Notes under the pieces: generated by a model
What the model saw: only the letters and a program-made list of their open reading frames with translations
Told to the model about the DNA's origin: nothing
Database searches by the model: none
Translations under genes and position numbers: made by a program
IMG/VR virus record: IMGVR_UViG_3300035492_000278
Location: 1-6,403 of that record
DNA length: 6,403 bases
DNA from: a virus
Direction: 5' to 3' (one strand)
Shown here: positions 1 through 6,403 of the stretch, piece by piece
Layout of the letters: every line of letters begins with the position of its first letter
How positions within the stretch are numbered: the stretch's first letter is position 1

Positions 1-107
1 ACTATAATTAATCCATACCTAGCCGGGATGGAGTAACCGACATGACCAACGAAGAACGCCAGTTCCACCTACGGATGGCAGAGAACATCGAAGCACGCGC
101 GAACGCC
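1..107. repeat. Terminal redundancy copy 1 (identical to 6297-6403)
   Basis: Base-by-base comparison with offset 6296: actataattaatccatacc...gcacgcgcgaacgcc occurs at both ends of the window. Confidence 0.95.
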
Positions 108-4718: not shown

Positions 4719-4979
4719 ATGAAATCACTAAAACTCGACGACGACGATCTGCACCGACGATTCAAATTGGCATGCGTTGCCACGGGCACGCCAATGATGA
4801 CAGCAGTTCATCAAATGGTGACCGCATGGGTTGCTGACGTGGAACGACGAATACCCGATATCCGTGCAGAATCACCCGCCAGCACGGGTCGCGGTGCTCG
4901 CCGGTCGCCCGGCAGACCCAGCCGCCACCAGACGCTCGCCGCCAACGGTCAGCAGGAAATCCCCAACGACGCACCGTGA
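4719..4979 (+). CDS. Ribbon-helix-helix (CopG/Arc/MetJ-like) DNA-binding protein, 86 aa, with a low-complexity tail; candidate phage repressor
   Basis: MKSLKLDDDDLHRRFKLACVATGTPMMTAVHQMVTAWV fits the RHH pattern: a beta strand with alternating residues, helix A, a G-x-S/T/P turn and helix B. GAGGAG lies 5 nt upstream of ATG 4719. The track start at 4650 has no SD. Nucleotides 4762-4979 are antisense to the rep 3' end. Confidence 0.6.
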   Translation: MKSLKLDDDDLHRRFKLACVATGTPMMTAVHQMVTAWVADVERRIPDIRAESPASTGRGARRSPGRPSRHQTLAANGQQEIPNDAP

Positions 4980-5745
4980 CCGGCAGGTTCCACCAAGCAC
5001 GCTCGAGACGGTGAGCCATGGACAGGCCGCCAACGCCGTAGAGCCGCGCGCCTTTCGGCATCACGTCGTCAGTCCCTTTCGACGCATATTTGGCCAAATA
5101 TCCGACCGCGTTCCGTGCACGTTCGGTGCGAGTCATGCCGTGGGGCCACCAGCCGCGACGATCAGCTTTCGGCATGGAGAGACCACGACCAGCAGGGTGC
5201 CAGAATAGGCAATGGTAATGAGGACGCCCGGCCTTGGTCAGCTCCAGAACCCAGACGTAACGGACCACATGCCCCTTCCGTTTGTACCACTGCCGAACGC
5301 GCCGAATGTACTCGGAAACATGCTCAGGCTGCCAATCGACACCAGGCCGATAGGTCAGCGTGACCATGAGCGCGTGGTGCTGGCGATTTTGCATCGCCCT
5401 GGAGTGCATGCGAGCCGTCGTGATGACGTTTTTTTTCAGACGGCGCAGGCGCATCGCCTGATGGTCAATCTCGATGGCGTTTTCGTCAACAGGCCACGTT
5501 TTGGTTGGAATGCTGCAACCCCACTCATGAGGCTGCGGTACTCCTGTTTCACAGCTCGGCCGCTGACATATCGTGGGCGTTTTTTTAACGGGCGTTCCAG
5601 TTGTTTTTATATGGACAAGCCCGCGCCCTGCGGGCGCTTGCGCCGCTGCGCGGCTGATCGCGTCAGCCCGACGATTAGCAACATATTGACGGAGTTGATC
5701 GCGCGACAGGAAATCGAGCGGAGAAAGCGGGGGAATGTAAGACAC
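4762..5745 (-). CDS. HUH-superfamily rolling-circle replication initiator (gene II analogue), up to 327 aa
   Basis: Motif 1 is ALMVTLTY, motif 2 is PHYHCLFW (HUH), and motif 3 is YLAKYASK (a two-tyrosine Y-x2-K-Y-x2-K, as in the phiX174 gpA-type YVAKYVNK). The longest ORF starts at GTG 5745 without a clear SD. An in-frame ATG at 5454 (MRLRRLKK...) is an alternative start. Confidence 0.85.
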   Translation of the reverse strand: MSYIPPLSPLDFLSRDQLRQYVANRRADAISRAAAQAPAGRGLVHIKTTGTPVKKTPTICQRPSCETGVPQPHEWGCSIPTKTWPVDENAIEIDHQAMRLRRLKKNVITTARMHSRAMQNRQHHALMVTLTYRPGVDWQPEHVSEYIRRVRQWYKRKGHVVRYVWVLELTKAGRPHYHCLFWHPAGRGLSMPKADRRGWWPHGMTRTERARNAVGYLAKYASKGTDDVMPKGARLYGVGGLSMAHRLERAWWNLPVTVRRWGFPADRWRRASGGGWVCRATGEHRDPCWRVILHGYRVFVVPRQQPMRSPFDELLSSLACPWQRMPI

Positions 5746-6084: not shown

Positions 6085-6202
6085 CGTTGAGGGGAAATCG
6101 GCCGCTACGCGGGTATCGTCGCTGGAACCGCGAGGCAATCAGTCCAGAGCGTGCAGGCGACTAATCGCCGCAAGCGGCGAGGTCGAGGCCACCGTCAATT
6201 CT

Positions 6203-6298
6203 CGTTACGTTGCATTATATCTATCGGGCCGGGGCGGTCGATCAGAATATACAATAAATTTCCGTTACGTTACGCCGGCCTATTTATCGTTACGTAAC
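6203..6298. repeat. Array of three exact CGTTACGT copies (6203-6210, 6263-6270, 6288-6295). The third lies within the perfect 10-bp palindrome GTTACGTAAC (6289-6298); candidate operator/iteron set
   Basis: Exact 8-mers within 93 bp of AT-rich DNA directly upstream of the plus-strand module. The palindrome abuts the TATAAT box. Confidence 0.6.
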
Positions 6299-6403
6299 TA
6301 TAATTAATCCATACCTAGCCGGGATGGAGTAACCGACATGACCAACGAAGAACGCCAGTTCCACCTACGGATGGCAGAGAACATCGAAGCACGCGCGAAC
6401 GCC
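6297..6403. repeat. Terminal redundancy copy 2 (identical to 1-107). It contains a duplicate of the first 66 nt of the 42-209 CDS at 6338-6403
   Basis: Exact match to 1-107. This is the signature of a circular molecule linearised with overlap, not a biological LTR. Confidence 0.95.
6299..6304 (+). promoter_or_regulatory. Putative -10 box TATAAT for the 42-209 / 206-784 operon (same bases as 3-8)
   Basis: Perfect sigma70 -10 consensus 38 nt upstream of ATG 42. There is no good -35 (TTTCCG/TTTATC at best), so the site may be activator- or extended-context dependent. Confidence 0.4.

Follow-up and report, generated by a model that had tools for sequence, protein, structure and literature searches.

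The stretch of DNA analyzed here (6,403 nucleotides; referred to below as the window) is a record classed as a complete virus with direct terminal repeats. It corresponds to a 6,296-bp circle, bases 1 to 107 of which are repeated at 6297 to 6403 as a 107-bp terminal redundancy, and it is a complete circular inovirus of the Pseudomonas type. The inovirus backbone is encoded on the minus strand and comprises a G2P-type Rep (5745-4762), a gene-V ssDNA-binding protein, coat ORFs, a pIII-like protein, a DUF2523 (pVI-like) protein, and Zot/pI. The Rep is ~43% identical to that of the Xanthomonas phages Cf1c, XacF1, and Lf, and megablast returned no near-identical phage records. Three further genes lie on the plus strand: ORF55 (42-209), a cargo gene occupying what we call the slot; the ORF195-family regulator gene (206-784; likely start ATG 206, MIEPADRQTQ), which is coupled to ORF55 by an ATGA overlap and encodes the proposed binder of the sites described below; and a ParG-like RHH gene (4719-4979). 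A profile search returned 815 relatives of ORF195, mostly named "hypothetical," and these homologues come overwhelmingly from Pseudomonas and allied genera.

The region in front of the plus-strand operon had been predicted to contain three exact 8-mers, and these were indeed found, as CGTTACGT on the plus strand at 6203-6210, 6263-6270, and 6288-6295. With both strands counted, the 6.4 kb contain five copies versus 0.29 expected, a number reached in 0 of 200 dinucleotide shuffles. Also as claimed, the last copy overlaps a perfect 10-bp palindrome (GTTACGTAAC, 6289-6298) whose right end abuts TATAAT (6299-6304; identical to bases 3-8 owing to the terminal redundancy of the circular record). The repeat turned out to be longer than first described, being made of 15-nt units (AWTTYYCGTTACGTW), and comparison with relatives defined the unit as a 12-bp dyad, CGTTACGTAACG, i.e., CGTTAC/GTAACG (the slash marks abutting half-sites), of which the three CGTTACGT copies are the left halves. 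The sites at 6263 and 6288 match this dyad in 11 of 12 positions (two such sites observed versus 0.012 expected), that at 345-356 in 10 of 12, and those at 6203 and 780 in 9 of 12. Outside the module, the other 5.4 kb of the window hold no further match to the 10-mer with one mismatch or fewer. The triad is a real, non-random cis-element.

The distal site (copy 1, 6203-6214, plus strand) reads CGTTACGTTGCA, with an intact left half-site, a degenerate right half, and an AT-rich flank (AATTCT, 6197-6202). The middle site (copy 2, 6263-6274, plus strand; CGTTACGTTACG) is flanked by AATTTC and lies 25 bp upstream of copy 3, the proximal site (6288-6299, plus strand; CGTTACGTAACT), which contains the palindrome, has TATTTAT (6281-6287) on its left, and shares its last base with the first base of the -10 hexamer. 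Two more copies lie in the regulator gene itself: an intragenic one (345-356, CGCAACGTAACG), which encodes Q-R-N-E, and a terminal, operator-like one (780-791, AGTAACGTAACT), which overlaps the stop codon (GTAACGTAAC in the window) and is followed by ATAAAT. A fifth exact CGTTACGT, on the minus strand at 5255-5262 inside rep, has GC-rich flanks and no AT-rich flank, is kept in the locus L003, which has no module, and is probably unrelated to the operator set.

For comparison, 17 modules encoding an ORF195-family protein, drawn from IMG/VR, Logan, and JGI contigs, the P. aeruginosa phages WX_Y and 42-1, and an Aquipseudomonas alcaligenes prophage, were anchored on TATAAT (loci are designated by L numbers). 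This comparison of the motif across related phages, proposed earlier as a check, upheld it: a dyad abuts or overlaps the invariant TATAAT in all 17 modules, as is typical of an autoregulated operator with dyad symmetry over the core promoter. The left flank is AT-rich (TATTTAT), and 32 to 39 nt separate the hexamer from the first start codon. A second upstream site is usual, at a distance from the proximal site of 25 bp in class A, 31 bp in class B, and 30 bp in class C (see below for the classes), and a distal site lies beyond it. The class T modules (L016-L019) have no site at the middle position and a -10-only promoter as elsewhere.

The word forming the dyad differs between phages, and it does so together with the class of the ORF195-family protein, the second mark of an autoregulated operator. 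At least four classes could be distinguished, plus a hybrid form. The class A word, CGTTAC/GTAACG (the window and nine others), goes with the basic helix SNAERQR.YRER; the class T word, GGTAAC/GTTACC, with TPAEKQRAYRER; the class B word, CGTGAC-gc-GTCACG, with SDAERARRYRAN; and the class C word, gATAAC-gc-GTTATc, with KTQAQIQREYRAR. In a blind test on the TPAEKQR variants L021 and L022, the promoters carried a hybrid dyad, GGTAAC/GTGACC, the unusual GTGAC half of which recurred in the intragenic copies of the same two loci. The co-variation of word and protein class rests on about five independent classes, not on 17 independent events. The residue at the position corresponding to the bZIP Asn tracks base -3 of the half-site (N/T, P/A, D/G, Q/A), the pairing expected from direct readout by the basic helix. 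The half-site spacing in class B is variable (0, 2, or 10 bp), which would require a flexible dimer.

The other upstream sites also have counterparts in the relatives. The middle site is a perfect CGTTACGTAACG in L009, L012, L020, and L023, and the distal site reads CGTTACtGTAACG in L020 and CGTTATGTAACG in L009 and is identical to that of the window in L011. Between the distal and middle sites of the window (6215-6256) lies a conserved spacer element, ATCTATCG-N12-CGATCAG..ATACAAT, which is kept across class A and class T loci. Modules lacking this element carry a near-invariant 13- to 15-mer, (TA)CCGACGAACGGT(C), between or beside the operator copies (L013, L014/L015, L023, L021, L022, WX_Y [L005], 42-1 [L006], and, inverted, L004). 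Farther upstream in the window, two small hairpins (6151-6188, GTGCAGGCGACTAATCGCCGCAAGCGGCGAGGTCGAGG) are nearly identical in L016, L017, and L019, where they lie directly 5' of the distal operator. L016 and L017 share them despite encoding a Rep of a different family (the Rep of L019 lies outside the stretch fetched), and the hairpins may be a cassette passenger or a shared origin or packaging element.

Copies 1 and 2 are separated by an imperfect, AT-rich inverted repeat; a reading of it as a dif/attP site was rejected, since its ssDNA folding was not better than that of shuffles and the dif-like attP pair of the relatives lies elsewhere, downstream of the regulator gene, with a sequence identical across class A and class T phages. 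That pair (e.g., ..TCGCATAA-N6-TTACATTAAAT and GATTAAACGTAACGTCACGGCATTATGCGAA) was seen 3' of the regulator gene at L015 7560-7650, L005 5700-5830, and L006 1-130 upon comparison with positions 785-900 of the window; L015, which is integrated in Aquipseudomonas alcaligenes, has a dif-like site at its end. No dif-like pair is present at 785-900 of the window, where ORF195 runs directly into a long GC-rich hairpin and the 3' end of zot; lacking the pair, this phage may be non-integrating.

We then considered the promoter. The hexamer at 6299-6304 (equal to 3-8, plus strand) is a consensus TATAAT without a good -35 element, it is invariant in the 17 modules (32 to 39 nt before the first ORF), and the first plus-strand ATG of the window (6338, equal to 42) lies 33 nt after it. 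The palindrome had been placed in the -35/-10 spacer by the original prediction; this had to be revised, since there is no recognizable -35 (CGGCCT at 17-bp spacing) and the palindrome adjoins the -10 hexamer instead. The promoter scan called no such promoter in any locus scanned, because the -35 is poor, and promoter activity and the transcription start were therefore assumed from the invariant TATAAT alone. A promoter-like match on the minus strand of the window (TCGACC-16-TATAAT, 6241 to 6214, within the spacer element) would start transcription inside operator copy 1, towards rep. The match is absent from the four relatives scanned (L011, L009, L017, and L020), and a divergent promoter over copy 1 is accordingly kept as a weak possibility.

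The leader contains an inverted repeat, TCCAT..ATGGA, at 6308-6328 (equal to 12-32, plus strand), the 3' arm of which includes the Shine-Dalgarno GGAG, so that pairing of the arms would sequester it. Its conserved form is CTCCAT-N8-13-ATGGAG (L009 829-869, L013 1468-1508, L020 3817-3857, and L021 2789-2829), with an inner stem that varies between phages and stays complementary. The predicted RNA fold is weak in the window (-7.9 kcal/mol, z -1.05) and strong in L009, L013, L020, and L021 (z -3.1 to -4.2), whose inner stems differ; a second leader type, in L014, L017, and L019, has no hairpin, and the window has no match to known RNA families. The repeat begins 2 to 3 nt after TATAAT, a distance hard to reconcile with a start ~7 nt downstream if it works as RNA. 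Either the start is unusually close, or transcription depends on an overlapping -10 (TACTAT/AACTAT), or the repeat functions at the DNA level.

The copies located within the regulator gene, and those at its end, follow the word of the phage concerned. The same G-N-V-T residues are encoded by GGTAACGTTACC in L017 and by GGTAACGTAACG in L020, the synonymous codons fitting the respective operator in each case. L021 and L022 carry GTAACGTTACC over the stop codon, in the same place as the terminal copy of the window, and in phage 42-1 the gene contains CGTGACG..CGTCAC, with GCGTGACGTCACGC immediately following the stop. At the [Q/K]RNE sites of the class A genes, Arg is encoded by CGT in 13 of 13 cases versus 11% of the Arg codons elsewhere in the same genes, Asn by AAC in 13 of 13, Glu by GAA in 13 of 13 (39% elsewhere), and Gln by CAA in 12 of 12 (36% elsewhere in the same genes). 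The codons thus read CAA CGT AAC GAA at 12 of the 13 sites and AAA CGT AAC GAA at the remaining one. This fixation of codons points to a constraint at the DNA level, with shared ancestry inflating the effect. An extra class A dyad, gtgCGTTACGTAACaaataat, was found at L015 7519-7532 and also in L013 and L014; read in the minus sense, it lies upstream of a convergent ~76-aa gene that follows the regulator gene. Many relatives carry this gene, and the window does not. The regulator may control a second promoter at this gene in those relatives.

We also asked what kind of protein ORF195 encodes. AlphaFold models built from family alignments gave a disordered N-terminal arm with an RGRP motif (R23, G24, R25, and P26 are invariant in the family), a basic helix (34-53), a long coiled-coil helix (60-115; pLDDT 96-99), and a small alpha/beta domain. 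The monomer model of the window protein has a Pro-containing hinge (54-59) between the basic helix and the coiled coil, and that of P0050, the regulator of L023, which has class A operators, has no hinge and a single helix spanning 31-108. No HTH, RHH, or other DNA-binding family was matched in Pfam or NCBIfam, no HTH or RHH fold was present in the structure models, and neither Foldseek nor a search of PDB sequences returned significant matches. RepB-RCR_reg (PF10723), the annotation of the 42-1 homologue, was discarded, as it had no match in the window, WX_Y, or 42-1 proteins at an E of ≤10. Membership in the bZIP family was rejected as well: there was no Pfam match (bZIP_1/bZIP_2) at an E of ≤10, and hhalign gave a probability of 17%, for the zipper part only. 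The sites themselves are short palindromes of abutting half-sites as bZIP proteins use, both in class A (CGTTAC/GTAACG) and in class T (GGTAAC/GTTACC). The arm may be an AT-hook (PF02178-type), a short motif that has no Pfam match here; RGRP is invariant, and the TATTTAT and TATAAT flanks of the site are conserved.

The slot in front of the regulator gene is occupied in the other modules by one of about seven unrelated small ORFs or is empty, and the ORF in the slot is always coupled to the regulator start by an ATGA or GTGA overlap. Since modules without cargo exist, control of cargo is not the only role of the regulator. Eight cargo types had no Pfam match, and none of the five compared with PDB sequences had a match there. 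No evidence emerged for an anti-CRISPR identity of the slot genes: none of the five tested cargo ORFs matches a solved Acr or a Pfam family. In loci with stacked cargo (L007, 1007-1100; L009 and L010, about 1100-1440), a remnant of the regulator gene (the first ~19 codons, MIEPADRQTQPLPLDEQPA..) precedes a second cargo ORF beginning MAITKIIITNG.., which suggests that cargo was inserted by recombination at the 5' end of the regulator gene. Cassette orientation varies: in the window the module runs against the backbone genes, in L004 it is inverted with respect to rep, and in L022 it points the same way as the virion genes.

Across the loci fetched, the ORF195-family gene was the only gene always accompanying the sites. 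We consider it likely that the CGTTACGT sites form a multi-site operator through which the ORF195-family protein controls its own operon, the control probably being autoregulation by repression. The earlier suggestion of an operator for the module's own DNA-binding protein is well supported, at the level of sequence comparison, by the layout in the 17 modules and by the co-variation of word and ORF195 class. The operator-array layout on a promoter is ordinary, the probable binder is unusual, and the protein-DNA co-variation is clear.

As to the mechanism, we infer that the ORF195-family protein binds the sites, in the mode set out here, with repression as the direction and a transcription start downstream of TATAAT. 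The triad would be the upstream part of a five-site operator set in a portable cassette composed of operators, promoter, optional cargo, and regulator gene. ORF195 would sit as a coiled-coil dimer on each 12-bp dyad, with the basic helices reading the half-sites in the major groove and the RGRP arms lying in the AT-rich flanks, i.e., at the proximal site, TATTTAT on the left and the minor groove of TATAAT on the right. A dimer at the proximal dyad would cover the bases upstream of the -10 hexamer and one base into it and would so exclude RNA polymerase, and the operon would keep its expression in check. Cooperativity or looping could be contributed by the other four sites, i.e., the middle one (25 bp upstream), the distal one (85 bp upstream), and those within the gene and at the stop codon.

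The same sites could instead exert dual control, as lambda cI does at PRM, with the middle site activating a promoter devoid of a -35 and the proximal site repressing it at a higher concentration of the protein. The poor -35 would suit such an arrangement, as would site 2, centered 25 bp upstream of site 3, both matching the dyad in 11 of 12 positions; if transcription started near 6311, the centers would fall at about -42.5 (middle) and about -17.5 (proximal). We regard dual control as unlikely, since the class T modules L016-L019 manage with the same -10-only promoter and no middle site, and the position of the start is assumed.

The mobility of the cassette raises the question whether the repeats are cassette boundaries or recombination or partition sites rather than transcriptional operators. 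The operon has a copy at either end (6288 and 780); L003 lacks the cassette, L004 carries it inverted, and in L022 it has the direction of the backbone genes; and regulator 5' remnants precede the stacked cargo in L007 and L009. Such a function in place of an operator is nonetheless very unlikely. Every proximal dyad is joined to a TATAAT whose distance to the first start codon is fixed, neither a recombinase nor ParA is encoded, and co-variation of the word with a DNA-binding-like protein, as observed here, marks an operator. The boundary and operator readings are compatible and can coexist.

That a host factor and not the phage protein recognizes the dyads is highly improbable. The role of the phage protein as the binder is itself deduced, which leaves room for such a factor; against it, at least four word classes exist among phages of one host group (Pseudomonas and close genera), and a host genome shows no enrichment of the class A dyad, the Aquipseudomonas alcaligenes chromosome with a class A prophage containing 5 sites versus 8 for the control.

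The other layout invoked in the original prediction, that of replication iterons, would make the repeats origin elements to which the phage Rep binds; this reading is contradicted by the distribution of the sites and is barely credible. The direct repeats do lie in the large intergenic region upstream of rep, beside GC-rich hairpins, but they did not go with their cognate Rep: L003, with a Rep 98%, an RHH protein 99%, and a gV protein 97% identical to those of the window, has neither the module nor the site cluster; L004 has a Rep of the same family and an RHH homologue together with a different word; and L020 and L023 have the same word and another Rep, of the Phage_CRI/G2P_X_C type. The RHH (ParG-like) protein, also proposed earlier, or ORF55 as the binder is likewise contradicted by distribution and scarcely tenable; RHH proteins bind short repeats and both genes are present in the same genome, but L003 keeps a 99% identical RHH protein in the absence of the sites, the class A word occurs in L015, L020, and L023 without a window-type Rep or an RHH homologue, and ORF55, found in the window, L007, and L008 only (three class A modules), is absent from most class A modules.

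To return to the operator read by the ORF195-family protein, it is possible, though doubtful as a whole, that this family is bZIP-like with an added AT-hook, dimerizing through a coiled coil and reading abutting half-sites with basic helices whose specificity is re-programmed by a few helix residues, and that it acts as a non-HTH, Aca-like controller of swappable Pseudomonas inovirus cargo with operator copies in its own coding sequence. If true, a widespread unannotated inovirus gene would acquire a function and a defined target sequence, and the regulators of accessory or anti-defense cassettes in mobile elements would include a third structural type besides HTH and RHH. The matched protein/operator pairs would offer a compact natural series for the study of re-programmed DNA-binding specificity, bZIP-like binding being almost unknown outside eukaryotes, and the variable slot would flag about eight small proteins as candidate host-interaction or phage-competition genes.

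Among known systems, the rstR/ig-2 region of CTX-phi is a heteroimmunity module whose HTH protein RstR represses the rstA promoter. Like it, the module described here is a regulator gene of a filamentous phage, read against the backbone and next to the replication region, whose operator and regulator diverge together into specificity classes. Unlike in CTX-phi, the sites here surround the regulator's own operon, and several relatives also have a separate XRE-type repressor next to rep.

Functionally, acr-aca operons come closest; the resemblance lies in the short mobile-element operon with swappable small cargo upstream, the regulator gene in the last position, and inverted repeats in the operon's own promoter, which are bound by Aca there and predicted to be bound here. 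The autorepressors Aca1, Aca2, and Aca10 are HTH proteins, an RHH-type Aca14 was reported in 2026, structured motifs in the 5' UTR have been described, and neighboring operons can come under the control of extra repeat copies (PMC9410906, PMC13551039). The regulator here differs in having neither HTH nor RHH, many of the modules have no cargo, and sites also occur within the regulator gene and at its end. No Acr activity was detected by Roux et al. in ten hypothetical proteins of P. aeruginosa inoviruses; the same work did identify two superinfection-exclusion genes (PMC6813254).

A putative regulator designated "AT-hook motif protein downstream of pI" is on record for filamentous prophages of Cupriavidus and Ralstonia, with no sites or mechanism reported (PMC10011098). 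It resembles the ORF195-family protein in being small, in its N-terminal RGR/GRP, and in its position beside zot/pI, the likeness being one of gene kind and position. Bacterial bZIP-like proteins have been described (RptR and TodS; PMC12255303), and the site of the eukaryotic E4BP4/PAR bZIP proteins is RTTAYGTAAY (PMC2654074). The ORF195 family stands apart from bZIP proteins in having no sequence or profile relationship to them, in the hinge, extra RGRP arm, and C-terminal alpha/beta domain of the window protein, and in the replacement of the Asn in classes other than A. It is like them in that a predicted basic helix is followed by a predicted coiled coil, continuously so in the P0050 model, with an N-x7-R spacing in class A, and in the sites themselves: RTTAYGTAAY accommodates the class A core, GTTACGTAAC, and TGACGTCA occurs within a class B site.
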